Positions 7,263 through 64,000 of a stretch of 64,000 bases of DNA are shown in pieces. Source of the DNA: Callorhinchus milii (Eukaryota). Numbering within the stretch: position 1 is the first letter of the stretch; each line of letters opens with the position of its first letter. The position numbers were made by a program, and so were the translations under genes. Location of the stretch: positions 8,310,001 to 8,374,000 of the forward strand of contig NW_024704742.1 in the NCBI RefSeq assembly GCF_018977255.1, in the 5' to 3' direction. The notes under the pieces were generated by a model. That model ran no database searches, was not told the DNA's origin, and was given only the letters and a program-made list of their open reading frames with translations.

Positions 7263-7647
7263 GATTATTACACCACCATTGGCGTCTCCATCCAAACCTT
7301 GTACAAGTGTGTGAGCAGAGCGTGTGTGTGTGTGTGTGTGTACACCCTTTTGGTGCTTTCAATNNNNNNNNNNNNNNNNNNNNNNNNNATAACCTCCGGA
7401 CTTTGATACAGAGCTTTATCAGATGGTTGAAAGATCTCAAAAGTGCTTCAAGGGGTTTGACTGTGGATACATATGAAGGCAAACTATTGTATTATTATGT
7501 TTTTATAAAAGAAAGCGATCCTCCAACCAATACCCTGAGTAAACAGAGGTTTGTGGAGTAAAGAAACTTGCCTAATGTTTTGTCCTGCCCGGAAATCAAA
7601 CCCAGTTCCTCTCACTTGCGAGGCGAGTGCTCTAAGTATTCCTGCCC

Positions 7648-7919
7648 TCACTGCTGTCCGGTGCCCTGTGCCCAGCCCTCCCGTGGGCTGGCACACACCC
7701 AGTAGCTGTCTGGCTGCAGGATCAGCCCGGAGCGGCCCTGGAGGTCGGGCAGGCCGTGCCCTGGCGCGGGGCAGAAGGTGAAGCGCTGGAGCAGCCAGCT
7801 GAGCAGGAGGAAGAGCTGAACCCGGGCCACAGCCTCGCCCACACACGCCCTGGGCCCCGCCCCGAACGGCAGGAAACCACCAGGAGAGACTCGATGGTCT
7901 CCACCATCCACAAACCTGT
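7648..7919 (-). pseudogene. CYP17-family cytochrome P450, last exon (exon 8 equivalent) of a 5'-truncated copy
   Basis: (D)RFVDGGDHRVSPGGFLPFGAGPRACVGEAVARVQLFLLLSWLLQRF...LPDLQG...*; heme motif FxxGxRxCxG; AG acceptor at 7921-7920. Frame is intact. Confidence 0.8.
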
Positions 7920-8099
7920 CTGTGTAACAGCAACAATGCAGCACATTTACACAGAGCCCTCCATACACACACACACACACCGGTCTGTGTAACAGCAACA
8001 ATGCAGCACATTTACACAGAGCCCTCCGTACACACACACACACATTCTGTGTGACAGAGGGGAACAACATCAAAAACAGCAATAACAGCAGCAACAACA

Positions 8100-8815
8100 C
8101 AGTAAGAACAACAACAGCAACACCAGCAGCGGCAACAGCAGTAACAACAACAACAAGATTATATTTGTATAGCGCCTTTCATGTCGGGAGGACGTCCCAA
8201 GGCGCTGGACAGTGTATACAGCATTTCAGACCCGAGCTGGGGTCGGGGGGGAAACGGAGGGGAGGGAGCGTGGCCGATGGCATGGTCGAAGAGGAGGGTC
8301 TTGAGGCGGGACTTGAAGAAGGCTAAGGAGGGGCGAGGCGGAGTGATTCAACAACAACAGCAGCAGCAACAACAACCCCGCAGAAGCGATAACAATAACA
8401 GCAGCAACAACAAACTTACATTTGTCTAACGCCTTTCGTGTCGGGAGGATGTCCCAAAGCGCTGGACAATCAGTGTTGCGGACCCGAGCTGCGGGTGCCC
8501 GGGTTGGGGATCAGGATTGGGAAGGGTAGAGAGCGGGGAGGGGGGGTGGGGGTGTGGAGGGTGACCAAAGGCACGTCGAAGAGGAGCGTCTTGAGACGGG
8601 TCTTGAAGGAGACAAGGGAGGGGGCGAAGCAGAGGGTCTGAGGGAGTTCCAGATGGTGGGGGCAGAGTGGCAAAAGACCAGCCTGAGGACAGTGGGGCGG
8701 GCAAGGCGGGGGATGTGAAGCAGGCCGGAGACCACTGAGCAGAGGGAGCGGGCAGGTCAGTAGGGACCTAGAAGCGTAGAGATAGCGGGGAGCAAGGCCA
8801 TGGAGCACTGCATGA
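8100..8815 (-). mobile_element. Two L2 LINE 3' ends with (GTT/GCT)n tails
   Basis: gggacgtcctcccgacatgaaaggcgctatacaaat 3' end; LVSFKTRLKTLLF-type RT terminus. Confidence 0.75.
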
Positions 8816-26111: not shown

Positions 26112-26694
26112 CTATAACACAGCATGAGAGGGTGTGAGAGCCCAGCACAGCTCAGCCTAGCACAGCCCAGCCTATCACAGCCCCAGCCCAAGCCCCTAGG
26201 CCCACCAGCCCAGCCTGGCCTAGCCCAAACCCCAGCATAACCCCAAGCCCCAGTCCAGCCCCTAGTACACAGCACAGTCTCCAGCCCAGCTCAATCCCCA
26301 GTGCAGCCCCAAGACCAGCCCAGTCCCTAGTACCCAGCCCCAGGCCAACCTCTAACCCAGACCCCAGCACCCAACACAGCCCACAGCACAGCCCACAGCA
26401 CAGCTCACAGCCTCCAGCACAGCCCAATCCCCAGCCCAACAATCCAACCCCCAAACCCCAGCCCAGCAACCTGCACAGCCCCCAACCCAGCCTAGTACCC
26501 AGCCCCAGCCCAATCTCTAACCCAGACCCTAGCACCCAGCACAGCCCACCACAGCCCTCAGCCTCACGCCTGCCCCAGCCATTCCCCCAGTCCAGTCTAA
26601 CCCTCCAGAAGTTTTCCCCTCCCCCCACACAAACAGCCTGAGCTGGGCTGTGTCAGGGAACCTGTGCAATGCAGAAGAGGGTGGCAGTGCTTAC

Positions 26695-26784
26695 CCAGCA
26701 ACAGGTTTGTGAGGAGAAACGGACCCAGGCAGTTGGTGGCAAAAGTGAGTTCTAAACCATCTGAGGTTATTTCTCGCTTCAGCC
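26695..26784 (-). CDS. RDH-like SDR exon 3
   Basis: (G)LKREITSDGLELTFATNCLGPFLLTNLLL; 90 nt; AG and GTAAG boundaries. Confidence 0.92.
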
Positions 26785-26823
26785 CTGAGAGTGAGAAGCA
26801 AACAGTTGTTTAGCCACCTGTAA

Positions 26824-26980
26824 ACACAGAGACGCGCGGCACACAGAGACACGCGGCACACAGAGACGCGCGGCACACAGAGACGCGCGGCACACAGAGA
26901 CACGCGGCACACAGAGACGCGCGGCACACAGAGACGCGCGGCACACAGAGACGCGCGGCACACAGAGACGCGCGGCACAC
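26824..26980. repeat. CpG-rich 17-mer minisatellite (ACACAGAGACGCGCGGC)n in RDH intron 2
   Basis: About 9 copies fill most of a 205-nt intron. Confidence 0.93.
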
Positions 26981-26989
26981 AAGAGATAC

Positions 26990-27229
26990 CTGATGCTCCT
27001 GCGTTATTTATGAGAATATCCAGTTGTTTCTCCTCCTTGTTGATCTGCTCTGAGAACCTGCGGACAGACTGCAGGGAGCTGGTGTCCAGGATACGCAGAT
27101 GAACGTTGTGATTGCCTGTCTTGTGACGTATCTCCTGCTCTGTGTTCCGCCCTCTATGCAGATTGCGACAGGCAAGAATCACACGAGCATTTCTCCGGGC
27201 CAGATCCATGGCGATTTGTTTCCCGATCC
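26990..27229 (-). CDS. RDH-like SDR exon 2
   Basis: (G)IGKQIAMDLARRNARVILACR...LDILINNAGAS; 240 nt. Completes the TGANTGIG Rossmann motif and contains NNAG. Confidence 0.93.
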
Positions 27230-27631
27230 CTACACACGCGGTCAGAGACAGGCAGAAGAGAAGTGTCAATGTTCTGACAGGGTCGGCTTCACGTCTCTGA
27301 CCCTGGGCTAGAGCCCCTAAAGCCCTTGTGTTAATCCTGTCCAGCACACACCCAACATCCCAACCCTTGCCTGGCGAAAACAGAGGGGCCCCCAAACCAT
27401 GCATGAAGCTTCTTGTGGATCTGGGTTCATGGAAATTGGTGTGAGTGAGGACACAGGGTTGAGGATTCTGCGTATTACAATGTCACTGCTGGCCTCCCGA
27501 AACCCTCATAAACGCCTTCATTATTTTGAGGCTTGACTATGCAAACTCCCTGCTTGTCGGCCTCCCCAACTCCTCCCTCCACAGGATGCAGATCATCCAG
27601 AACTCTGCAGCTCGTGTCCTCTCCCGCACTA

Positions 27632-42480: not shown

Positions 42481-43861
42481 ACATTCATTAAAACTAGGTT
42501 AAATAAAAATAACTCACTGAGCAGACATTTATTCGATAAGAATACGGGTGGGTGTGCCAAGATCAAGGAAAGAGTGAAAAAAACAACTCCATCCTTGAAA
42601 CTGTGTCCATGTCAGATCAGTATAAGAGTTTGGGTTGAAACACAACTTAAGTGTAGAATAAGAGTACTCTAGAGTAAGAAAAGTAAGAGTAAAAACAAAA
42701 GCAGGAAGATTACAACTCTACCCAGAGATCAGGTAATACCGCATATTTTCTCTGTTACTATTCGCTGAAATCTTTGTAAATGTTTGACCTAGTTTATGAT
42801 CTATAAATATCTATGTACAAAGAACTGGTGTCTCCTCCTGAACATTTTATAGGGATTATTACCTCAGGAAAGTGATCCGCCAATCGACTAACAACTGGGT
42901 TCCTACTTACTGCTAGAGAAACAGAGGCATGTGGGGCAAGGAAACTTGCCAAAGTTGTGGCTCTTTCTGGGAATCAAACCTATATCTTCTCACTTGTGAG
43001 GCAAGGGCTCTAAACGCTGAGTTACAGGACTCCACACTATTTTCCAAGCAAACAGGTGGAATTGATGACTGAATGGTGTAAAACTCTAAATATGTTTATT
43101 TCTGTACCAGAGCAGTAATTGCCCTGAGAGGTGAAGGCAAGACAGATGTTAGCGGGAGAGTGTGCTGTGAAGCAGTGCTGATACAGGCCTGATGTGAGGC
43201 CGTTGCTGGCGGAGCAGGGTCCCCATCAGAGGCTCCACACATTCAGACTCCTTGATCTCGTGGGGAGGGGAGGACTCGCAACTGGAGGATCACCTGCTCT
43301 TCCCCTCCATCGTGCCACGCTCTGTGGAGCGAGGCCCACTGGCTCGGGAGCCACACAGCTCCGTGTGGGAGCCACGGGCCCTCAGGCCCATCTCCACCAC
43401 CGTGGCCATGCCGGCACTGTGTGTACANNNNNNNNNNNNNNNNNNNNNNNNNNNNNNCGGATGCCCCGATCTATATTTTTTGTATAGCCGTCCGCCGAAT
43501 GAACTCGCGTTAAAGTATTGAGTGATATCTTTTCTGTGATCTCCTGCAGCTCCCAGTGTCCTGCCCACTCCCTCCACTTCTCCCACTCAGGTCAATGTGT
43601 TTCTCAGCCCCTCTTCCACCATCACTAATCCAGGGTCAGGCACTGTGTCCCTGTTCTCGAACTCTTCCCAAAACCAGTTGCTTTGTGTCTTCTCTTCCTG
43701 CCCCAATGGCCTCTTGTGTAAAAGGTGCTGTAAGTGCAGTGGGTTATATTGGGTTGTGGGGAATCCCAGCTTGTCCTCACCCGGCATCAGGAGACACCAG
43801 GCTGAAGTCCCCCCTATTCCACAGTTACTGAGGGCAATTATAGCCAAACTGTGTATATTGG

Positions 43862-44619
43862 TTAAGCTGTTCTTTGCATCATTTCTATGGGTTTATAAAC
43901 CTTTTCACATGATCGTACCTCAGTCTCCATCATATTAACCACTTTTCGTACCTGTTCAGCAATTCCTGACTTGGATCCGTTGCAACAGTTAAGGATATTC
44001 TTTATTGCAAAGTAAACATCGTACACAACAACAATTGCTAAGAGAAACTGTAAAACAGCCCTCACTGGGTTTACCTTGTGGGTGGCCTCCATGTCAACAA
44101 TGAGGGGAAAAGCACATGAACCACTGGAGAACATCTCAGCTTTACCAGTAGATGGATATCTTCCTGATTTCATGAACAATTGGATTATCCTGTGGAGTTT
44201 ATTGTAGCAATCCGCCATGGCTCTGCTGTCTGTTTTATATTGTTCTATTTCATTCACTCTTATCACTTTCTCTGTTTGTGAAGCAGTGATATTGCCACGA
44301 GCTACAAAGGTGATAACAGTCCCGACTGCAGCTATTACAACTCCCACAATGGTGAGGCTGAGTGTGAACACCAACCTCTTTACCAATATCTTCGCGAATG
44401 TTGTGCCAATGATTATTGCCACAATAATCAGTATCACTCCGGCAATACGCAGTATGGAGCCCAATGGTCAGAGCTGTGTCTGATCTGTGAAGGTGTCGAT
44501 GTGGTCCGCAGCCTCTCGCAGTGCTCTCAGGTGTCCTCCCCTGTTCCCTCCACAGAGAGCTGTGCTTTAAAGCTCTGCACATCATCAGTCCTCTTTGCCA
44601 GCTCAGTGAGGAAGGCTTC
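43862..44619 (-). pseudogene. Apolipoprotein L-like pseudogene, main exon
   Basis: Homology to the neighbouring APOL-like gene is spread over three frames (EAFLTELAKRTDDVQSF / LWREQG / HLRALREAADHIDTF) with an in-frame TGA at 44470-44468. These are followed by the hydrophobic hairpin and an APOL-type C-terminus SKSGIAEQVRKVVNMMETEV. Confidence 0.75.
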
Positions 44620-44999
44620 CTGTGAACACAAAACAACCAACTCTCAGCTACTGCCCACATCACACACAGCACCAGACACAGGGAGCCCAGTGGGGTCAGG
44701 GCAGCCTTTCCCACAGAGGAAAGTAGTTACAGATTTCTGAAGAGAAAGATCATGTGTTCTCTGGAGGGATGAGGGCAGCTCTGTCTCTCTCTCTCTTTGT
44801 CCCTTTAATCGTTGACTCTGCCCTCTATAATCGTATTCGGTGATTTCCAGAAAGCAGGGGATTCAGAGAAGTTATAAAGAGCTGGTCACATGATCATTTT
44901 ATTATTTCCATGTCAGTCTCTCTACTTTTAATATGCTATATATATAATTAGTAAATTAGTAATAATATTTATCAATAAAATAAGAACAGAGAGACTGGG

Positions 45000-47978: not shown

Positions 47979-48003
47979 CTGTCCTTAGTGGCGCTGACTG
48001 TGT
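47979..48003 (-). pseudogene. 25-nt mini-exon of the APOL-like pseudogene
   Basis: ACAG|ACACAGTCAGCGCCACTAAGGACAG|GTATGT; paralogous to 57999-58023, including flanking intron. Confidence 0.65.
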
Positions 48004-49321: not shown

Positions 49322-50132
49322 TCAATTGGAAGCGCTTTTCAAATAGCCGGCACAGAAACGATGGGCCGAATGGCCTCCTTCAGTGCTGTATAATTTTATG
49401 ATTCTTTGATAATAATCCTTCCTTTTGATATAGCACCTTATCACATTGTTCAGATGTCTCACCGTGGGTGACTGAGAAAGGGAAGCAACTATGACTGTAC
49501 CTTCCAGATGTTTATAAATCTCTTCATACGCCATCACTTCATTCTCCATCACTTCAGCCACACCGTGAATATGTTTAGCAGCATCTGCCCTGGCTCCACA
49601 GTTGAGATTATGAACATCGTTTACTCTGGAGATCAGATCCGATGCAATAAATAATCCTGTCTGAGCTGCTGACCCGGCCCTGGATGTCACTGACACCTGT
49701 TTGCTTATTGTTTCAGCCACAGCAGCAAATACAGCCAAGTGTTCAGTGAGACTCTCAGCTCCACCAGGAAATGTAATATCTGATTTCTTACTATATTGCT
49801 TCAAGATCCGAACTGCTCGTGAGAGTTTTGTGTAACACTCTGCCATTTCTCTGCTGTCCTTTGTATATTGTTCCCTGATATCATTAACCCTTTTCTGTCT
49901 CAGTGTTTGGGTTACAGTGTCCGTGTCAAAAGCTGCAGTGTTGTCAGCCCCACCAGCCACACTCTGGCCGACTCCCACTCTCGGGCCAGGTTTGTGAATC
50001 GAGTAAATGCTGTCTGCGATCTCTCGTAGGTCTCTGATGTAGCTGATCATCCACACTCTCCACATAGGGAACAAGGTGACAAAATCTTTCAAATCCTCCT
50101 TCCTCTGTTCAACCTCAGCTTTGTAAGATTTC
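49322..50132 (-). CDS. Apolipoprotein L-like protein, main exon 3 (model 59574-59553, 58023-57999, 50132-49322; 285 aa)
   Basis: KSYKAEVEQRKEDLKDFVTLFPMWRVWMISYIRDLREIADSIYSIHK resembles the APOL F...FP...I..LR..AD.I..H segment. C-terminal GARADAAKHIHGVAEVMENEV...YEEIYKHL. AG acceptor at 50134-50133; frame open. Confidence 0.8.
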
Positions 50133-50865
50133 CTGTTAATATTAGAAACTCAATTAGAAACCCAGCTCAGAGGAAGGCCCAAGGAACCTGCCTTTTTCAC
50201 CATCGTCTCCTCCCTCTTCCCCACAAAATATAAAAAGAATACTGGGAAAAGAGCAAACTGGTATGGTTATGGCTTGGATTGAACCCTAATAAAATGAGTA
50301 ACAGCTGTGTTCTTACAGGGTGTCAGAAGAAAACTGAATTGGACAGGAAATAACTACTGTACGCAATTAGAAATGGAGAGTGAAAGAAGCAAAATGCATT
50401 CTGCATCGAGGGAGTCAATTAAATATCGAGGGGTATGTAAATACCGAGACCATTGACATCAATGGGAAGCTTGAGTCACAATTGGCACTGGTTTGAGCGG
50501 GATTTCACTAGTACAGCCACAAAGACAACAAATTACTATAGTTTTGAATGTAGCAGAAGAGGAATGACAATATTTTAAGACTTTGGAAGGGGGTATCAAA
50601 TGCCATTACAGGACGTGATGAATATTAAGTGGTGCGGTGCTGTGCATAAAACAATGTGAAGATTGAGCAATACAAATTTGTCACCAAAAAACAAGAGCGA
50701 GTGGAACTGTTCACACAATATTTTATGGCACAGTGCTCCCCATTTTTGTGGGCGAAATGCAGTAGCCAACTGTGTACAGCAGTATCCCGCAAAAACATTT
50801 TTTGAGGGATTATTATACCCGGTAAAACGATTCACAAATCGACAAACAATTGGGTTCCTACTTAC

Positions 50866-51175
50866 TACAATAATAATAATCCTTGCATTTGATATAGCGC
50901 TTTCACGTCTTCTAAACATCCCAAAGCGCTTCACAGAAAATACTGTAAAGTGAATTGACTGTATATTTGTGGGTGAAACTTGACAGCCAATTGCGCACAG
51001 CAATGTCCCACAAACAGTCGTATATTGAAAATGACCAATTTATTATTGTTTTGTTTTGGAGGGATTATTATTAGGCGTGTGGGGTAAGGAAACTTGCCCA
51101 GGTTTCGCTCTGTCTGGAATTGAACCCAGGTGTCTCGCTTGCAAGGTGAGTGCTCTAACCACTGAGCTGCAGGAC
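50866..51175 (-). mobile_element. SINE, short subfamily
   Basis: Reverse complement of 11797-12120 with moderate divergence. Confidence 0.85.
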
Positions 51176-51259
51176 CACAATCCATTCACCAAAGGAAACG
51201 GTTTCTCCCGATCTACTCTATCAAAACCCCTCATAATTTTGAACACCGCGATTAAATCT

Positions 51260-51935
51260 CCTCAGCTGTCACAAAGCACAATTTAAACCAAGCCACGACA
51301 TTGGTAAAACAAGAGAATTCACAATTATTTAGTGTGTGTGTTTTCTTCAGGGACTCACATGATGGCTTCCGTGGATTCACAGCTGATATCTGAGTTGGCC
51401 AAGAAGATTCTTGAAAATGTGATAAGTGGCTATAACAAATGTATGGATTATTATTATCTGTGTACAAAACACTACAGCGAGGGTAAGTCTGCTGACTTGT
51501 CTCACTTTGAGGAGTAAGAGACCCTTCCCCAGGAATTCTATGGGACCACAATTTGTCAAAAATTTACAACACAGACAAGCCCCCCTTGTTGTTTAAGTGC
51601 ACCCGGACACAACTTACTGCATTGAGGGACAACCCTGTACTGGAGGCAAACAACCTGAAGACCGCAGTTCCATTATTCAATTATGGTCACATACAGCCTC
51701 TCATAATAGGAAAATCAAAATCCCTGTAATGCTTCAAAAACATCAAATATCTACCGGCAAAAATGAAGCCAAAACCTGGATAACATCTGATTTTCTCCAA
51801 AAAGTGCTGTATGAAGCTCTTATTTTGCAAAACGAAGAGTTCATTGATCTTTTTGTTAATGAGGATGTAAATGAGCAATGTACTGCAGCACTAGCAGATG
51901 AAGATATCATCATCTCAGTAAGGAAGGAACTAGAC
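51260..51935 (+). mobile_element. Tigger/pogo (CENP-B-like) transposase relic
   Basis: Frameshifted motifs IYNTDKPPLLF (cf. NxDETGLF), PDTTYCIEGQPCTGGK, QPLIIGKSKS.CFKNIKYLP, KTWITSDF, LADEDIIISVR. Confidence 0.75.
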
Positions 51936-51940
51936 AAATA

Positions 51941-53852
51941 GGAGGGGGTTTGGCAATATTAATCAAGGATACGGTTATAGCCATGGAAAGGGTCGAGGTG
52001 CTGGAGGATCCCCAAAACAGAATCTATCTGGTTAACGTTAAGGAACAAAAAAGGAGTTGTTACGCTGGTAGGGGTATACTATAGACCACCAAATAGTGGG
52101 AAGGAAATAGATGAGCAGATCTGCAAGCAGATCTCAGACAGATGCAAGGCCAATAGAGTTGTGATAATGGGGGACTTTAATTATCCCAACATAGACTGGC
52201 AAAACAACAGCGCAAAGGGCAAGGAGAGGGAAAGATTGCTAAAATGCATACAGGATAACTTTCTTGATCAGTATGTTTCCAGCCCAACGAGGAAGGAAGC
52301 AGTTCTGGGGAATGAAGTAGGGCAAGTGGAGCAGGTTTCAGTGGGAGAGCATCTGGGCAATAGTGATCACAACATCATTAGATTCAGAGTGCATATGGAA
52401 AGGGACAAGGAACAATCAAAGGTGAAGATGTTCAACTGGAAGAGGGTTAATTTCAGTGAGTTAAAAAGAGACCCAGCCAAGGTGGGCTGGAAAGAAAGAT
52501 TGGCAGGTAAAACAACTAAAGGGCAGTGGGAAGTCTTCAAGGATGAGATAGCTCGGGGACAGAACAAATACATTCTGTCCCACAAAAGGGAAAAGCAGGC
52601 CAATCAAAACCTCCCTGGATGACGAAGGTAATTGTGTCTAGAATGAAGCAGAAAAAGGAGGTATATGACAAATGTCAAACCTAAGATACAGAAGACAACC
52701 AAATAGAATATAAGAAATACAGAAGAGAACTGAAAAAGGAAATAAGAGGGGCAAAATGAAAAAAGGTTAGCGGGTAACATTAAAGGAAATCCTAAAATAT
52801 TTTACAAACATATCAAGAAAAAAAGGTTAGTCAAAGGTAGGGTGGGGCCAATTAAGGACCAAGGCGGAAATCTTGTTGTGGAGGCAGAGGGCATGGCTGA
52901 TGTACTGAATGAGTACTTTGCATCTGTCTTCACAAAAGAAGCGGATGCACCAAATGCCACAATATCGGACGAGAGGGTAGAGGAAATGGATAGGATAAGT
53001 GTAAACAGAGAGGAAGAACTGAAAAGGTTGACTGGGCTCAAGGTAGATAAGTCGCCCGGTCCGGACGGGATGCAGCCAAGGATACTATGGGAGGCACGGA
53101 TACAAATAACGGAGGCTTTGGCTACAACTTTTCAATCTTCGTTGGACTCAGGGGTGGTGCCAGAGGACTGGAGAGTGGCCAATGTTACTCTTCTGTACAA
53201 AAAAGGGCAGAAGGACAATCGTCGGGAGGACGTCCCAACTACAGGCCAGAGACCTTGCCAAGGTGGACTGGAAAGAAAGATTGGCAGGTAAAACAACTAA
53301 AGGGCAGCGGGAAGTCATTTAACATTTGACAAAGTGACACATTAAAGACTTGTAAGAAAAATAGAATGGTAAAATGAGTAGACACATGGCAGATGAATTT
53401 CAATGTGGAGAAATACGAGGTAATGCATTTTGGAAGAAAGAATGAGGGGAGGCAATATAGGCTGGTAATACAATCTTAAGGGGGGTAAAGAACAGAGATA
53501 TCTGGGGGTTCAGGTAAATGAATCCTTGAAGGTGGCAGGACAGGTAGATAAAGATATAAAAAGGGCATATGGGATACAAGGCTTTATAAATAGCGGCATA
53601 GAGTACAAGAGTCAGGAGGTTATGATTAACTTATATAAAACACTGGTTAGGCCTCAATTAGAATACTGCGCCCAGTTCTGGGCAACACACTATAGGAAGG
53701 ATGTTAAGGCATTGGAAAGGGTGCAGAGGAGATTTACGAGGATGGTACCAGGAATGAGGGACCTTGATTATAAGGAAAGGCTAAAGAGGTTAGGATTATT
53801 CTCATTGGAGCAGAGAAGGTTACGAGGAGACCTAATAGAAGTCTTCAAAATC
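51941..53852 (+). mobile_element. CR1 LINE ORF2 (EN plus RT), internally deleted and rearranged
   Basis: IMGDFNYPNIDW, KSPGPDGMQPRIL, VPEDWRVANVT, LVRPQLEYCAQFW. Confidence 0.9.
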
Positions 53853-53854
53853 AC

Positions 53855-54105
53855 TGGTAAAACAAGAGAATTCACAATTATTTAGTGTGTGTGTTTTTTT
53901 CTGGGATTCACATGATGGCTTCCGTGGATTCACAGCTGATACCTGTAGTGGCCAAGAAGATTCTGATCAGGTGATGTGTGAAGCTCTTATTTTGTAAAAT
54001 GAAGAGTTCATGGATCTTGTTGTTAATGAGGATGTAAATGGGCAGTGTACTGCAGCACTGGTAGATGAAGATATCATCACTTCAGTAAGGAAAGAACTAG
54101 AGGAC
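53855..54105 (+). mobile_element. Internally deleted second copy of the Tigger relic
   Basis: Matches ~51301-51412 joined to ~51811-51934. Confidence 0.75.
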
Positions 54106-54338
54106 ATACAAGAAGCGGAGTAACCTGAAAACAACGCCATTATGCGGGTGTGAAGAGAGGCATTTAGTGTATGTGAAGGATTGCAGACCTCTGTTGTTCA
54201 ATCTGAGCCATTGGCACAAATGGCTGAAGCAGCAAAGCACAGTGGAAACTGGTTAAACCGGACACATCAGGATGACCATTTGTCCGGCTTAAGGGCATCT
54301 CAGGTTAACATTGTCTCTTCCCACCCAGCAGAGGAGCA

Positions 54339-54534
54339 GGGGCGGGGCTGCCTCCCTCCCATTGCTGGTCCCATTGGACCAATCAGCAGTGGCTCTGAGG
54401 TGATTGACAGCCTTAGAGCCACCTGTGAGTATTTGGGCTCCAGCCAATCACAAGCGGCTCCAGCTGTCAATCAATCATGAGTTGACTCCTCCCATTCCCT
54501 CCCTCGTTCTTCTCTGTTCCTCACTGATTGACAG
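54339..54534. promoter_or_regulatory. Promoter-like motif cluster (GC box, three CCAAT, three TGATTGACAG)
   Basis: GGGGCGGGGC at 54339; ATTGG/CCAAT at 54373, 54379 and 54444; TGATTGACAG at 54401, 54464 (reverse) and 54525. Confidence 0.45.
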
Positions 54535-56229
54535 CCCAACTCCAGCCGCTTGTGAATGGCTGGAGTCCACTGTCTGAGATTCCTCCCAATTCCATCCCAT
54601 TTCCATCCCTTTCATTCCAGTCAACAACGCTTCAACCACAATCAATGCACAAGTCTCGTTCGTTTTATCTTGAAACCCACTTATGGCGACAGAATCCGCT
54701 CAGTCCCCGCAATGTCGACATAAACAGTTAGGACTGTTCTCAGATAGTTAAGCAAGTCATATAACTATGGAGCACTGTGAGAAGAAATGATTAAAACAAA
54801 TAGATTTGGAATTGGAATTTGAGACAAGGTAGTGGACTGGGGAGTAAGCAGGTCAGAAAGGTACAGAGGTGCCAGGACATAATGTGATTTCTAAACAAGT
54901 GAGAGGATCCTGAAGTCGATCCATTCTGTGATAGGGAGCCAGTGGAGCCTGGTGAGGACCGGTGTGATGGGGGTACGGCATAATGGAGGTATGGAGTGTA
55001 GTGCTGGTTTTGAATTAGAGAGTATTCAATTAGTTGGACTTTATGGATAGTGGAGCTGGGGAGACTGGCAAGGAGGGCATTGGAATAGTTGGGAGTTGGA
55101 GAGACTGGCGAGGAGGGCATTAGAATAGTTGAGACGGGAGGTGACCAAGGCGTGAATGAAGGTTGCGGCTGCATTGACATATGGTTGGAAGCAGGCAATG
55201 TGATGGAGGTGGAGGAAGGCGGTCCTCGTTAGGGACCGGATGTGCTGAGGAAGGACAGCTTGGGATCAACTCTGATGTCAAGGTTACGCACAAGTTCAGT
55301 AAGTATCAGGGAAAGGCCAAGGAGATTGAGGGGATAAGAACCACAGAAGACATTGATGGGAGCCAAGGAGTATGGCTTCCATCTTGACAACATTCCCAGG
55401 AATGAAGGTATGGTCAAAGAGGAAGTTATTGATAAGCTGAACCAGAAAAAAACTGTTTCCACTGGCATGTGGGTCAGTAACCTGAGGACAATGATTTAAG
55501 ATAGTTGTTAACAGAAACGGGGGGGGGGGTAGGAATTTTTTTTTACCCAGTGAGTTGTTTGGATCTGGAATGCATTACCTTAAAGTGTAGTGGAAGCCGA
55601 TTCAATGACAACTTTTAAGAGTGAAGTAGATGGGTATTTGGGGAGGACAGGATTGCAGGGCGAAGGAGAGAAAGCGGACCAGTGGGATTGAGTTGGATTG
55701 GTCTTTTAGGAGCGGGGGAGACATGATGGGCCAAATGGCCTCTTTCTGTGCTATATGATTCTATTATTCTATGATTCAACTTCAGGTGGTTTGCGTTCAT
55801 CCAGCCTTGATGTCTAACAAACAAGCTGATAGAGCATTGGTGGACCTGGAGTTACAGCTGGAGGAGAAGTAGATTTGGGTGTCAGTCGGACACATGTGGA
55901 ATTTGAACCCATATTTGCAGATCACATTGCTGAGAGGGAGCATGTAAATCAAGAAAAGAAAGGGGGCCAAGGATGTGCCCCACCCTGACCGCTCCACCAC
56001 TCAACATTTCTGCCCCCACTTTCTAGAACTCCATCCTTGAATCGCTCCACCGCACCCCGTCCCATGGCGCCTTCAAGATCCATCTCAAGAACTTACTCTT
56101 TGACCATGTGCAAACCCTTAACTTTCCAGCACCATGGTTCTCCCGACGTGAAATGAGCTATCAATGTTGCTGTTGGCAAGGTCTTTAGAGAGGAAAAGCA
56201 AGTTAGAAATGGGCCAATAGTTTGTAAGT

Positions 56230-57100
56230 GATTACCTCATTGTAGGTAACAACACAATACGATATTTTGAATATGCAGAACTAAAGGACACGACTGCAAA
56301 AACAGCAATAAATAATACCAAACAAATGTTAGTGCAGCGTGGAATACCCAAGACTGTAATCAGTGATAATGAATTACAATTCATGAGTACCCCATATAGA
56401 AAACCCACAAAGAGCTGAGGATAGAGCACAGGACAGGGTCACCCCAGGATATCCACAGAGCAACGGGAGGGCAGAGAGAACAGTCCAGGCAATAAAGAAA
56501 ATGTGGGAAAAAAACAAAAAATACCAGGGGACAAACACTTGGCAATCCTGGCATACAGGAACATGCCAATAGAGAACAAAGAAAGGTGACTGTACCATTA
56601 TTGTCACAGGTATTATGGGACTTGCTAACAGGCAGAGAAAAGATTATTTCATCTTCTCTGTGCCTGTGGTTTTAGAGATCGATGCTGAGATGAAGCAAAA
56701 AAAACTGTTTCAAAACGGTGAAAAACTATGGATGACAGTGGGCAGTAAGTCCATGTTTGATTGGTAGTTTTTTTCTTGAATATTTCTTAATTTATGGCAT
56801 AATTACAGAAATATTCAATCAAGAAAATGTATTTTGTTGGACGACCATAAAGGTTGGCCATCAATGGTGTAGAAACACATATCAAGACAGAAGGGTGGAC
56901 AAAGATAAAATGTTGAAAACTGATTTTAAAAATTCCAGGATCATATTGGATACAAGACAAAATATATATGCCCAGAGAGATGAGGAAAAAAGGCCATGGA
57001 ACAGAAAGAGGAACAGAATTGAGTAAAAAAGAAAAGTAGACCAGAGAAAAGAAGGAACAAGCACAAGATCAGGAAGAAAGATTAGATGAGCAGAAAGATT
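56230..57100 (+). mobile_element. Gypsy LTR retrotransposon integrase relic
   Basis: YFEYAELKDTTAKT...RGIPKTVISDNELQFMS, TPGYPQSNGRAERTVQAIKKM, terminal TRSGRKIR. Confidence 0.8.
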
Positions 57101-57318
57101 AATTGAACATGACAGAAGAAAAGAGACGAGAGCAAGGAAGATGTGGTTTTATTACTGTAATAATTAAGGACAATTAAGAAAGAGACAATAAGGTGAAGAC
57201 ACAAAGTATAAAAGGTCACTGGCAAATTAACAAACTGGTGTTGTTATGGCTGTTAGATTGGAGCTTTGGGTTGAGCCCCAATAACCTGAATAACACCAGC
57301 AAAGCTCCTTCACACAAA

Positions 57319-57785
57319 GCTGATAGTGTGTGCACATGGACTGATAGTGTGTGCACATGGTTTGATAGTGTGTGCACATGGGCTGATAGTGTGTGCACAT
57401 GGGCTGATAGTGTGTGCACATGGGCTGATAGTGTGTGCACATGGGCTGATAGTGTGTGCACATGGGGTGATAGTGTGTGCACATGGGCTGATAGTGTGTG
57501 CACATGAGCTGATAGTGTGTGCATATGGTTTGATAGTGTGTGCACATGGGCTGATAGTGTGGGCACATGGGCTGATAGTATGTGCACATGGGCTGAGAGT
57601 GTGTGCACATGGACTGATAGTGTGTGCACATGGGCTGATAGTGTGTGCACATGGGCTGATAGTGTGTGCACATGGGCTGAGAGTGTGTGCACATGGGCTG
57701 AGAGTGTGTGCACATGGGCTGATAGTGTGTGCACATGGGCTGATAGTGTGTCCACATGGACTGATAGTGTGTGCACATATGTGCA
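57319..57785. repeat. 21-mer minisatellite (GCTGATAGTGTGTGCACATGG)n
   Basis: About 22 tandem copies. Confidence 0.95.
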
Positions 57786-57998
57786 CATGCGCTGTCCGAC
57801 ACCTCGGGAGTCTTCACTGCAAAATTTTCCTCTTCTCACCAACTCAGCCACTCACCACCCCAAGAGGTGTGTGTGTGTGTGGGGGGAGAGAGAGAGAGAA
57901 ATGAGACAAAGATCCAATCAGAAGAGACCTGCGAGAAAAAGTGATTCATTCACAATATCCGGCAGTGTATTCAGCAGCTGCCTCACATCTGTACGTAC

Positions 57999-58023
57999 CT
58001 GTCCTCGGTGTCACTGACTGTGT
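57999..58023 (-). CDS. APOL-like exon 2 (25-nt mini-exon)
   Basis: ACAG|AC ACA GTC AGT GAC ACC GAG GAC AG|GTACGT; phases 1 and 2 link exon 1 and exon 3 in frame (DTVSDTEDR). Confidence 0.7.
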
Positions 58024-59552
58024 CTGTTGAACAAGGGAGAAACAGGAGCCATTATCACTGGTTATTATCTGGTACCAACAGAGTGAACAGACACAATCCT
58101 GACTGATACAGCGACCATACAGGAGGGAATGTCCTCACCACTCGCGGGTAAACAAAGCGTTCTCCCCTCAGCAGCGACAGGAGCAGAGCAGCAATGTGGC
58201 AGCTCTACTGTTTGGGTTTGGCTTCTTTCCTGACAAACACAGTGGGTCACACAGGAGCCGCGAGTGGGGAACACTCAATATAACAGAGACTCAGAGACAC
58301 AGCAAAAACTGCCGGCAACAGAGAAATGAAACACACACATAGATACTGTACCCTCCACAGACACACACACACACACTCAGACACCGTCCCCAACAGACAC
58401 CGTCCCCAACACACACACGCGCATACACATATACACACAGACACCATCTTCAACACACAAACACTGTCCCCCACACATACACACACACACACCCACACAC
58501 ATACTCACACACACAGACACTGTCCCTCACACACACACCCACACAGACACCGTATCCAACACACACGCACACACTGTCCCCAACACAGCAACACACACCA
58601 GCCCCAACACACATACACACACACAGACACTGTCCTCAACACAGACGCACAGACATTGTCTCCAACACACACATACACACACTCACAGACAAGATCCCCA
58701 ACCAACAGACACCATCCCCAACACACACACAGTCACCGTCATCCACACACACCCACACACACAGACACCATCCCCCACACACACAGACACGGTCCCCTGC
58801 ACACCATAAGACCATAAGACATAGGAGCAGGAGTAGGACATTCGGCCCCTCGAGCCTGTCCCGCCATTTAATACGATCATCGCTGATCCTCTAATCTAAT
58901 TCCATTTTCCAGCTTATCCCCATATCTCTTAATGCCTCTATCCTTTAGAAATCTTTCAACCTCAGTCTTGTTACACCACATCTACTGGTTCCCCCCTATC
59001 TAACCGACTAGTTACATCCCCAAAAACTGTTCAAAATAATTTCCCTTTTGTAAAGCCATGTTGACTGCCTAATCATGTTATGATTTTCTAAGTACCCCAC
59101 AACGACGTTCCTAATTAAGGACTCGCAAACGCAGACACACAGGCAGACACGGTCCCCAACACACACGCACACACACACGTAGACATGGTCCCCAACATAC
59201 ACACACATACACACACACGAGCACACAGACACCGTTCTCAACACACACACTGTCTCCCACATACACCCACAGACACCATCTCAACACACAGACACCGTCC
59301 CCAACACACACACAGACACCGTCTCCAACACACACACAGACACCGTCCCCAACACACCCACAGACACCGTCCCCAACACACACACAGACACCGTCCCCAA
59401 CACACACACAGACACCGTCCCCAACATACTCACAAACACTGTCCCCAACACCATCCCTGACAATATAAAGACTCACAGAGGCACAGTGATGGGAACGAGA
59501 TTAAAATAAATCAATATTTTCATTAAAAAACAGTAGAAAGCTTTGCTCTCAC

Positions 59553-59574
59553 CTGGTGTTGGGATCAGTGCCAT
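59553..59574 (-). CDS. APOL-like coding exon 1
   Basis: cacacaATGG Kozak context; MALIPTP; CAG|GTGAG donor; phase fits exon 2. Confidence 0.62.
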
Positions 59575-61263
59575 TGTGTGACTGGTCCCCAACAATCAAC
59601 AGTTCTCACAATAACTGAAACCTCAGCTTCAAGTGAAGGTGAACAACATCTTTCTCTTTAATCACCACTGAACCCTGAACTCCCCATCACTGCTCCCCGA
59701 GCCCTGCTCACTCCCCCCAGCCCTGCTCACTCCCCCCAGCCCTGCTCACTCCCCCCAGCCCTGCTCACTCCCCCCCCAGCCCTGCTCACTCCCCCCCAGC
59801 CCCGCTCACTCCCCAGCCCCGCTCACTCCCCGGCCCTGCTCACTCCCCCCCCAGCCCTGCTCACTCCCCCCCAGCCCTGCTCACTCCCCCCCAGCCCTGC
59901 TCACTCCCCCCCAGCCCTGCTCACTCCCCCCCAGCCCTGCTAACTCCCCCCCAGCCCTGCTCACTCCCCCCCAGCCCCGCTCACTCCCCCCAGCCCTGCT
60001 CACTCCCCGGCCCTGCTCACTCCCCCCAGCCCTGCTCACTCCCCCCCCAGCCTTGCTCACTCCCCCCCAGCCCTGCTCACTCCCCAGCCCTGCTCACTCC
60101 CCCCCAGCCCTGCTCACTCCCCCCGCCCGCTCACTCCCCCCCCAGCCCTGCTCACTCCCCAGCCCTGCTCACTCCCCCCAGCCCTGCTCACTCCCCCCAG
60201 CCCTGCTCACTCCCCCGGCCCTGCTCACTCCCCCCAGCCCTGCTCACTCCCCCCGGCCCTGCTCACTCCCCCCCGGCTCTGCTCACTATTCACTGCTCAC
60301 ATAACACAGCCCAAAGCCATGGTACACAGTTCAGTAACCCGACATAGCAGAGATCACAACAACAATGGAGTTGACATCGTGATCAGGTCATACCCTCAAT
60401 TCATCTCAGAATAAAGGACAGATGGACAGGTTGTTAAAGAGGAGGGAATGTACAAGAGAAGTTGACGAAGAGTTGAACAACACTGTGAGGTCAAACCTCA
60501 ACGATTTATCATAACATTTTTTTCACACATTCATAAGAGACATTTAATCAACATTCTACAATATTAATATTTCCTGATATATAGACAGTGAATGTTCATA
60601 TTTAGATCTGTTGTATTTTACAGATTTACAATAACCCTCACCCTAACCCTCTGTTTTCTTCCCATTAGCCACTCTCCAATCCAAGATAATAGATAACCTT
60701 TAATTCCATGGGCTCTAATCTTATGTAACAGAGTTTTATGTGGCACCTGTCGAATGCCTTCTGGAAATCCAGTTACACCACATCTACTGCTTCCCCCCTA
60801 TCTAACCGACTAGTTACATCCTCAAAAATCTATAAGATTTGTTCAACATAATTTCCCTTTCGTAAAGCCATGTTGACTGCCTAATCATGTTATAATTTTC
60901 TCAGAACCCCACAACGACGTCCCAAATTAAGGACTCGCAGACGCAGACAAACACGGTCCCCAACACACACACACACACACACACGTAGACATGGTCCCCA
61001 ACATACACACACACTTACACACGCACACACAGACACCGTTCTAGACACATACACTGTCTCCCACATACACCCACAGACACCGTCCCCAACACACCCACAG
61101 ACACCGTCCCCAACACACTCACAGACACCGTCCCCAACACACACAGACACCGTCCCCAACACCATCCCTGACAATATAAAGACTCACAGAGGCACAGTGA
61201 TGGGAACGAGATTAAAATAAATCAATACTTTCATTAAAAAACAACAGAAAGCTTTGCTCTTAT

Positions 61264-61285
61264 CTGGTGTTTGGATCAGTGCCAT
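61264..61285 (-). pseudogene. Duplicate of APOL-like exon 1 with inactivated donor
   Basis: ATGGCACTGATCCAAACACCAG is followed by ATAAG instead of GTGAG. Confidence 0.6.
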
Positions 61286-62304
61286 TGTGTGACTGGTCCC
61301 CAACAATCAACAGTTCTCACAATAACTGAAACCTCAGCTTCAAGTGAAGGTGAACAACATCTTTCTCTTTAATCACCACTGAACCCTGAACTCCCCATCA
61401 CTGCTCCCCGAGCCCTGCTCACTCCCCCCCAGCCCTGCTCACTCCCCCCCAACCCCGCTCACTCCCCCCCAGCCCTGCTCACTCCCCGGCCCCGCTCACT
61501 CCCCGGCCCTGCTCACTCCCCCCCAACCCTGCTCACTCCCCCCCAGCCCTGCTCACTCCCCCCCAGCCCTGCTCACTCCCCAGCCCTGCTCACTCCCCAG
61601 CCCTGCTCCCTCCCCGGCCCCGCTCACTCCCCGGCCCCGCTCACTCCCCAGCCCTGCTCAACCCCCAACCCTGCTCCCCAGCCCTGCTCACTCCCCAGCC
61701 CTGCTCACTCCCCAGCCCTGCTCACTCCCCCCAGCCCTGCTCACTCCCCCCCAGCCCTGCTCACTCCCCAGCCCTGCTCACTCCCCCCCAGCCCTGCTCA
61801 CTCCCCAGCCCTGCTCACTCCCCCCCAGCCCTGCTCACTCCCCAGCCCTGCTCACTCCCCCCAGCCCTGCTCACTCCCCAGCCCTGCTCACTCCCCCCCA
61901 GCCCTGCTCCCCCAGCCCTGCTCACTCCCCAGCCCTGCTCACTCCCCCCCCCCCGCCCTGCTCACTCCCCCCCAGCCCTGCTCACTCCCCCCCAGCCCTG
62001 CTCACTCCCCAGCCCTGCTCACTCCCCCCCCCGCCCTGCTCACTCCCCCAGCCCCGCTCACTCCCCCCAGCCCTGCTCACTCCCCCGGCCCTGCTCACTC
62101 CCCCCGGCTCTGCTCACTATTCACTGCTCACATAACACAGCCCAAAGCCATGGTGCACAGTTCAGTAACCCGACATAGCAGAGATCACAACAACAATGGA
62201 GTTNNNNNNNNNNNNNNNNNNNNNNNNNNNNNNCAAGTACTGTACCTGGCCGGTAAGGAGATCGAACCAACTATCTGGCACAGTGTCCTCTTCCGCCTTT
62301 CAAT

Positions 62305-64000
62305 TTCAGCCATTTGTGCCAATGGCTCAGATTGAACAACAGAGGTCTGCAATCCTTCACATACACTAAATGCCTCTCTTCACACCCGCATAATGGCGTT
62401 GTTTTCAGGTTACTCCGCTTCTTGTATGTCCTCTAGTTCTTTCCTTACTGAAGTGATGATATCTTCATCTACCAGTGCTGCAGTACACTGCCCATTTACA
62501 TCCTCATTAACAACAAGATCCATGAACTCTTCATTTTACAAAATAAGAGCTTCACACATCACCTGATCAGAATCTTCTTGGCCACTACAGGTATCAGCTG
62601 TGAATCCACGGAAGCCATCATGTGAATCCCAGAAAAAAACACACACACTAAATAATTGTGAATTCTCTTGTTTTACCAGTGATTTTGAAGACTTCTATTA
62701 GGTCTCCTCGTAACCTTCTCTGCTCCAATGAGAATAATCCTAACCTCTTTAGCCTTTCCTTATAATCAAGGTCCCTCATTCCTGGTACCATCCTCGTAAA
62801 TCTCCTCTGCACCCTTTCCAATGCCTTAACATCCTTCCTATAGTGTGTTGCCCAGAACTGGGCGCAGTATTCTAATTGAGGCCTAACCAGTGTTTTATAT
62901 AAGTTAATCATAACCTCCTGACTCTTGTACTCTATGCCGCTATTTATAAAGCCTTGTATCCCATATGCCCTTTTTATATCTTTATCTACCTGTCCTGCCA
63001 CCTTCAAGGATTCATTTACCTGAACCCCCAGATATCTCTGTTCTTTACCCCCCTTAAGATTGTATTACCAGCCTATATTGCCTCCCCTCATTCTTTCTTC
63101 CAAAATGCATTACATCGTATTTCTCCACATTGAAATTCATCTGCCATGTGTCTACCCATTTTACCATTCTGTCTATATCTTTCTGCAGTGGGCTTTGTGT
63201 TGTCCGCAAATTTGGAAATGGTACTTGCTATACCCAAGTCCAGATCATTTATATATATATTAAGAAGAGCAGTGGTCCCAATACTGATCCCTGGGGGACG
63301 CCACTGTACACTTCCCTCCAGTCAGAAAAGCAACCGTTCACCACAATTCTGGTTTCTGTCTCCCAGCCAGTTCTGGATCCATGCTGCCACTCTCCCTTTT
63401 ATACCATGGGCTTCTATTTTTCTTACAAATCTTTTATGTGGCACTTTGTCAAATGCCAAATGACTTCCCACTGCCCTTTAGTTGTTTTACCTGCCAATCT
63501 TTCTTTCCAGTCCACCTTGGCTAGGTCTCTGGCCTGTAGTTCCCACGCTTGTCCTTCTGCCCTTTTTTGTACAGAAGAGTAACATTGGCCACTCTCCAGT
63601 CCTCTGGCACCACCCCTGAGTCCAACGAAGATTGAAAAATTGTAGCCAAAGCCTCCGTTATTTGTATCCGTGCCTTCCATAGTATCCTTGGCTGCATCCC
63701 GTCCGGACCGGGCGACTTATCTACCTTGAGCCCAGTCAACCTTTTCAGTTCTTCCTCTCTGTTTACACTTATCCTATCCATTTCCTCTACCCTCTCTCCG
63801 ATATTGTGGCATTTGGTGCATCCGTTTTTTTGTGAAGACAGATGCAAAGTACTCATTCAGTACATCAGCTATGCCCTCTGCCTCCACAACAAGATTTCCG
63901 CCTTGGTCCTTATTGGCCTCACCCTACCTTTGACTAACCTTTTTTTCTTGATATGTTTGTAAAATATTTTAGGATTTCCTTTAATGTTACCCGCTTACCT
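62305..64000 (-). repeat. Inverted copy of 52763-54227 (CR1 plus Tigger piece plus flank)
   Basis: Near-identical reverse complement; the ORFs 53526-53885 (+) and 62648-63007 (-) give identical translations. Confidence 0.92.

Follow-up and report, generated by a model that had tools for sequence, protein, structure and literature searches.

Can an APOL-like (ApoL) gene that lacks the membrane-inserting hydrophobic hairpin of its family encode a protein of its own? APOL proteins are innate-immunity effectors acting on membranes, and the question is raised by a gene on the minus strand of a 64,000-nucleotide (nt) stretch of the Callorhinchus milii genome (contig NW_024704742.1, positions 8,310,001 to 8,374,000), which is referred to here as the window and in whose positions all unprefixed coordinates are given. 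A preliminary description of the locus, made from the sequence alone, had proposed that three exons encode a 285-amino-acid (aa) soluble ApoL, which had cleanly lost its hairpin and stood beside a paralog with two long hydrophobic helices. The results presented below make it likely that the window gene belongs, as a truncated and probably decaying copy, to a family of tandem two-domain ApoL genes, in which a hairpin-less domain (A) would be translated ahead of a hairpin-bearing one (B).

Conceptual splicing of the three exons (59574-59553, 58023-57999 and from 50132 onward) generated an in-frame product of 285 codons, with GT/AG splice sites and a stop ending at 49322, as had been announced. 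The count of 38 residues between the motifs LREIADSI and RVNDI was also exact in the translation. The frame is a genuine member of the ApoL family, since the Pfam ApoL profile (PF05461) matched exon A in two stretches with 43 bits against a cut-off of 25.9 (expectation value, E, 5.1e-11), the better stretch spanning profile positions 181-293 of 298. In addition, the Atlas clusters nearest to the A domain are ApoL.

Loss of the hydrophobic hairpin from this frame was confirmed by two analyses. The maximal 19-residue Kyte-Doolittle window of the A domain is 1.07 and no segment reaches 1.6, whereas segments of at least 1.6 were present in both two-domain paralogs and in 10 of the 10 other ApoLs scanned, the maxima of the latter being 1.79-2.56. 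In the family alignment, 35 columns, which comprise helix 1 of the hairpin, its PFT turn and half of helix 2, are empty in 7/7 A units and filled in 12/12 other ApoLs. The later C-terminal helix, known as the membrane-addressing or HC2 region, is polar in A (SAAQTGLFIASDLISRV, versus VSGVLSGVLVVWDVY in the others). Two further helices are retained. The helix that precedes the hairpin aligns at LREIAD, where L35 and A39 do not vary and I38 hardly does, and motifs of this type are counted as BH3-like in a passage of one report (PMC8557400); a BH3-like helix, of putative activity, is kept in the A domain. The C-terminal amphipathic, zipper-like helix is also present, A192 being invariant and AKHIHGVAEVMENEV aligning with IRxVAxxMExE. 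The AlphaFold2 model of A comprises four long helices (predicted local distance difference test score, pLDDT, 78; predicted template modelling score, pTM, 0.73). A low-confidence or disordered loop (residues 47-69) occupies the former place of the hairpin, and a helix is predicted at residues 178-210, with a block of pLDDT about 90-96 over residues 181-210. Structure searches with this model returned generic and designed helical bundles only, and the AlphaFold2 model of exon B (pLDDT 56) was too poor for a fold search.

To what kind of gene such a domain belongs was indicated by a census of the window's own assembly, which led to the recovery of nine cassettes within about 0.37 Mb. The cassette consists of exon 1, a mini exon, the hairpin-less exon A, a second mini exon and the hairpin exon B, and each of the five is found in the window, frame-compatible, with its splice sites and on a single strand. 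Among the nine A units (C1:8.35-8.66 Mb), seven are open, with 75-100% identity, one carries 9 stops and one is split by a frameshift. A hairpin-bearing B unit, 28-32% identical to A, lies 2-5 kb downstream on the same strand for 7/9 A units, while the other two (L005, L009/L010) are followed by a variant, C, in place of B. Homologues of mini exon A were found in L031, L032, L033 and L034, and the splice sites of exon A are conserved across all copies located. Before B or C, a second 25-nt mini exon with conserved splice sites is present in 9/9 cassettes, and none of the nine has an exon-1-like ATG exon between A and B.

The frame runs across these elements. Exon 1 and exon A share their end phase, the B or C exon is open in six cassettes (L028, L030, L031, L032, L033 and L034), and for 6 of the 7 cassettes with an open A, conceptual splicing of A, mini exon and B yields a single frame of 450-487 codons. 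The conceptual products of L034 and L032 are identical to the NCBI models P0006 and P0007 (485 and 443 aa, respectively), and the Ensembl model P0004 likewise fuses both units. Screening a library of 5.8 billion proteins for a standalone protein of 110-352 aa matching the window B unit gave none. The picture of a stand-alone soluble gene beside a membrane paralog therefore does not fit the cassettes, six of the seven with an open A splicing conceptually into B, and the supposed adjacent paralog would be a further coding exon within this gene design, the one that follows A. The preliminary description had also presented the difference between the two units as a clean loss of about 40 residues. 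An in-frame loss indeed took place, but it is not a recent deletion in the window gene: A and B units are only 29% identical and nine copies share it, so the difference is old and family-wide.

The window copy departs from this design in its exon B. Relative to five intact copies, the first 175 nt or so of window exon B show five gaps, of 1, 2, 2, 1 and 2 nt, which add up to 8 missing bases, and an in-frame TGA is found at 44468-44470. The remaining 600 nt or so beyond the clustered gaps show no frame-breaking indel, and the final 201 codons are open. When window exon A is spliced to the usual acceptor of B, a stop is met 131 residues past A, mostly out of frame, versus 240-276 residues to the normal end in the six other cassettes. 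The frame through both domains is thus not continuous in the window, unlike in those six, which may reflect a fault of the assembly. The neighbour had been described as an adjacent paralog with 79 positions between the two motifs; this span includes the TGA, and the upstream motif LREAADHI lies behind further frame changes, so that in the assembly the neighbour does not form an open gene. By eye, no in-frame rescue of exon B through another acceptor was seen, no alternative haplotype copy of this exon is contained in the assembly, and the NCBI model of the window gene skips it. Because the assembled exon B is disabled, A is all that is left to the window copy, whose product can only be the A domain followed by a tail without family match.

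The 3' end, too, departs from the model first described. The last 47 codons of the 285-aa frame (49322-49461) are copies of two dispersed repeats that occur many times in the window. Immediately after ...YKHLE, the donor CTGGAAG/GTACAG is kept in 8/8 copies located and places the end of exon A at 49501. Past this donor the sequences diverge widely between copies, as expected of an intron. The NCBI model LOC121849683 (276 aa) has the same exons 1-3 as the 285-aa model and is identical to it through residue 228; it uses the 49501 donor, then the mini exon 48003-47979 and then an exon at 43418-43299. The N-terminus of NCBI model P0002 is identical to the product of exon 1.

These observations can be arranged in the following order of events, which we infer from the anatomy of the copies. 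An ordinary ApoL gene would first have acquired, by internal duplication, a second module made of a mini exon and a big exon. The first of the two modules (A) would then have lost the hairpin (35 columns) and the hydrophobicity of the later helix, both of which would have been retained by B or its variant C, and the whole cassette would subsequently have multiplied until nine copies occupied about 0.37 Mb. Where a copy is intact, A would form the N-terminal 225 residues or so of a 470-485-aa protein whose C-terminal half (B) may enter membranes, and A would not be a free soluble protein. The window copy may give rise to the 276-aa product of the NCBI model, to the 285-aa product of repeat read-through, or to a product ending about 131 residues past A through the acceptor of B. 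The features concerned are collected in Table 1.

Table 1. Elements of the two-domain ApoL gene in the window, with their positions and strand.
Feature	Position	Strand	Description
Second exon 1 copy	61264..61285	-	one mismatch; donor AT, not GT; probably dead
Exon 1	59553..59574	-	22 nt; starts with ATG; encodes MALIPTP; phase-1 end; donor GT
Mini exon A	57999..58023	-	25 nt; encodes DTVSDTED; AG acceptor and GT donor
Big exon A	49501..50132	-	hairpin-less ApoL domain; 210 full codons; ends at conserved donor CTGGAAG/GT
Read-through tail of the 285-aa frame	49322..49500	-	intron if the donor is used; 49322-49461 repeat-derived
Mini exon B	47979..48003	-	25 nt; encodes DTVSATKD; intact AG and GT; used by NCBI model P0002
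Big exon B remnant	43862..44619	-	ApoL domain; two strongly hydrophobic helices; disabled as assembled
Last exon of NCBI model P0002, coding part	43299..43418	-	40 residues without family match; beside assembly gap 43428-43457

The second exon 1 copy sits in an apparent local duplication of about 1.7 kb, in which a 20-nt proline-coding tandem array is repeated too; the arrays near the two exon 1 copies lie at 59695-60414 and 61373-62335.

The substitution pattern of exon A was determined among the copies. Pairwise ratios of nonsynonymous to synonymous substitution rates (dN/dS) among the seven open copies ranged from 0.56 to 1.44. Neutral evolution had been named beforehand as a finding that would refute the proposal of a soluble gene, and exon A of the window copy shows a pattern of this kind: its dN/dS is about 1.0-1.2 with respect to its two nearest copies (1.03 versus L028, 1.20 versus L030), with the codon positions used equally and the replacements spread evenly. 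The unique variants numbered 135 (34 synonymous, 101 nonsynonymous) and were distributed 44/47/44 over the three codon positions. The index of dispersion of the replacements was 0.92, with 132 invariant columns for 134 expected. The frame itself, on the other hand, has been respected. No stop was seen for 4.7 expected (P 0.008, computed with the two broken copies out of nine left out), and the 22 pairwise gap events in exon A were all multiples of three, versus 101 of 137 that were not in the upstream 300 nt. Exon A of the window has no indel at all. In the simplest reading, we infer that exon A is kept open because B can be translated only by reading through A, the sequence of A itself being little constrained. 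Constraint and diversifying selection mixed in A would give the same pairwise numbers.

Among the B exons (L030:5865-6614, L032:1575-2333, L033:1545-2309, L034:1355-2107 and L028/L029), dN/dS values of 0.77-2.5 were obtained, 9 of the 10 pairs being above 1. Judged from these sequences, diversifying selection on the membrane-inserting half of the protein is suggested.

A neighbour-joining tree with 200 bootstraps was built from 10 of the 25 distant library matches and from the units other than the broken ones (window B, L035, L036 and L038). The A, B and C units formed one clade with 100% bootstrap beside canonical ApoLs of the same cluster, although the three groups all stand on long branches. 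Such a single clade is compatible with an internal duplication, after which the first copy lost its hairpin. Window A is 41% identical to L037, a canonical ApoL in the same cluster. When 1.84 billion representative proteins were screened, 29 matches were obtained at E of 0.001 or below, four of which are Callorhinchus models with the A domain (P0001, P0002, P0004 and P0005). The remaining matches are 27-40% identical, and the hairpin is carried by all 18 of the 18 for which sequences were retrieved. Within this library, the gene family was found only in Callorhinchus milii.

Some copies outside the window differ in their details. The C units, located at L031:4596-5288 and L036:4072-4731, have a shorter and less hydrophobic hairpin and are 33% identical to both A and B; that of L036 ends early. 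The copy at L028:3885-4598 lies just outside the window, in head-to-head orientation to the window gene, and both its A and its B exon are open. No exon 1 or first mini exon was found in the 3.9 kb upstream of this copy, and in NCBI model P0001 it is linked to the following cassette via an out-of-frame piece of exon B.

Several points weigh against the view that the window gene is a decaying two-domain member. The A-to-B splice is drawn from gene models, conserved sites and frame logic, so that its use in vivo is to be read as predicted. At 97% likeness, no cover on exon A was given by the contigs of runs X6 and X7, which are not recorded as RNA, and a 54-nt piece from run X8, with one mismatch, fits four paralogs equally; the joints recorded in the four runs were dominated by repeats. 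The probability given above for the missing stops leaves the broken copies aside, window A has kept an open frame, and each of its six private replacements is conservative. Besides, the A domain is predicted to fold on its own with fair confidence, and a use of its own would be possible. Last, the breaks of exon B may be unreal, as every difference consists of bases missing from the window. The gene would then be an ordinary intact two-domain member in which assembly or polishing errors, or a polymorphism, have simulated decay, which we regard as unlikely, yet as the least unlikely of the alternatives. The six differences in and just before the start of exon B are all of this kind and are clustered within about 175 nt. 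Some 400 nt beyond the exon B stop there is an assembly gap (a run of N, 43428-43457), and near-identical inverted copies are generally hard to polish. Furthermore, one contig of run X1, covering 44557-44758, has an extra base after 44618 and another after 44632, at two of these six places. This contig may however be cross-laid, since it shows at 44601 the state typical of another paralog and the paralogs are 98% alike over that piece. The errors would also have had to produce three gaps of 2 nt, outside homopolymers, among the five, and to spare exon A of the same copy entirely. NCBI modelled no corrected frame, and the assembly offers no second version of the exon B stretch.

The proposal that prompted this analysis was that of a free soluble hairpin-less ApoL acting as a decoy for pathogen factors, a BH3-type regulator or a dominant-negative partner of the hairpin paralogs. 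It can draw on the open frame with its good splice sites, the protein-coding 276-aa model, the retained LREIAD helix with its invariant L35 and A39 and the predicted four-helix bundle. Human APOLs are reported to act through helix-helix contacts, in cis and with partners, in a part of one review (PMC11726835), and dN/dS values of up to 2.5 in the B units are reminiscent of an arms race. However, the A-only state is limited to the window copy and arises there from the broken exon B, the C-terminus is either repeat-derived or without family match, and the replacements are evenly spread at a dN/dS of about 1. Among the 29 library matches, A is carried by the four Callorhinchus models only, the hairpin being present in 18/18 of the others retrieved. 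No result obtained here points to one of the three roles proposed, and we hold a free soluble protein to be distinctly improbable. A related idea, to which we give only a slim chance, is that A, as an ApoL-shaped bundle, is a built-in partner of B, covering its hairpin or co-assembling with it until a trigger is received, much as soluble and hydrophobic-headed paralogs share the task in multi-component helical pore formers. A-only copies would act in trans: they could restrain the B domains of other copies or soak up a pathogen factor targeting the ApoL bundle, and an arms race, combining constraint with diversifying selection, would account for the near-neutral dN/dS. Finally, exon A might be an untranslated relic or part of a long leader, the working protein being B alone, reached from exon 1 through the second mini exon or from another start. 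The junction from exon 1 to mini exon B is frame-compatible, as its end phase is that of A, and the substitutions in A look neutral. Nevertheless, A is open in 7/9 copies without any of the 4.7 stops expected, its indels are in frame while many in the flanks are not, its splice sites are kept in all copies located, and no model of 110-352 aa matching the window B unit was found. An untranslated exon A is for us very improbable. Decay of a two-domain gene thus remains the reading that we favour for the window copy, whose A domain would have no function independent of B.

Canonical ApoLs (PF05461; human APOL1-6, and L037 and L039 in the same cluster) share with A the LREIAD helix, the QKRVxEI...Y.KDS helix and the C-terminal amphipathic helix. 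A differs from them by the absence of the 35-column helix-loop-helix hairpin and of the hydrophobic later helix, and by its place as the first of two domains per gene. In the structures solved for the N-terminal part of APOL1 and APOL2 (7l6k, 7lf7 and 7lf8), the last helix was matched by positions 5-48 of the family profile with E of 3.5e-4 to 3.1e-3. Only this helix, which precedes the hairpin, was matched by sequence; the solved pieces end at the start of the hairpin, and the rest of the ApoL domain is not covered by any solved structure. The NCBI records of the C. milii genes hold no description, domain reading or family census, the two-domain models LOC103187865 (485 aa) and LOC121849673 (443 aa) being named 'uncharacterized protein' like LOC121849683. 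Architecture, copy number, state of each copy and substitution pattern are added here. No description of a hairpin-less or tandem ApoL, nor of these C. milii genes, was found in the literature covered, from which subscription journals are mostly absent. Because the literature covered is without such genes and the transmembrane hairpin is called 'the major characteristic of APOLs' in a passage of a review (PMC11726835), the two-domain design with a hairpin-less A is probably a new ApoL variant, of which the window copy would be a degenerate representative.

The family can be regarded as a natural experiment, in which an ApoL domain minus its hairpin was kept in frame, fused before a complete ApoL domain and amplified nine-fold in one lineage. 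If A is functional, it would show what the helical scaffold of ApoL does without membrane insertion, be it regulation, partner binding or autoinhibition; if it is not, the family would be a clear case of a domain kept open solely since translation must pass through it. As for annotation, gene models of this cluster should unite its 'adjacent ApoL paralogs' into single genes with two domains.

In ClyA-type multi-component alpha-helical pore formers, soluble and hydrophobic-headed paralogs act together. The A/B pair resembles them by analogy, not by membership, as both are made of paralogous long-helix bundles that differ in a hydrophobic hairpin. One difference is that A has no head at all, and a co-assembly of A with B would be putative. 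Weak Foldseek rows for AhlB, SmhB, AhlC and ClyA (E 0.085-0.2) were obtained with the A model. Positions 36-108 of the family profile A4, which correspond to the canonical hairpin, matched the hydrophobic head hairpins of bacterial MakE (6w08, E 9.3e-4) and Nhe L1 (6tao, E 1.2e-3) around a shared PFTLGxSL-like turn. These matches are weak, arise through the hairpin-bearing members and involve a Gly/Ala-rich stretch, so that they may be compositional.

Besides the gap near exon B, the window contains runs of N at 7364-7388 and 62204-62233; the contigs of all four runs stop at 43428-43457. The four runs also showed an apparent 'exon' of 207 nt at 43221-43427, which was discarded, as its upper edge is this gap and not a splice site. 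Two exons of unrelated genes lie on the minus strand, one of a short-chain dehydrogenase at 26694-27482 (adh_short, E 3.2e-13) and one coding for the C-terminal end of a cytochrome P450 at 7651-8178 (E 6.5e-18). Long interspersed nuclear element (LINE) fragments encoding endonuclease/reverse transcriptase (E 7.2e-11) were recognized at 51981-53885 on the plus strand and at 62648-63064 on the minus strand, and the 7.9-kb intron before exon A contains LINE fragments. A 138-aa frame at 53469-53885 recurs letter for letter at 62648-63064 on the opposite strand.

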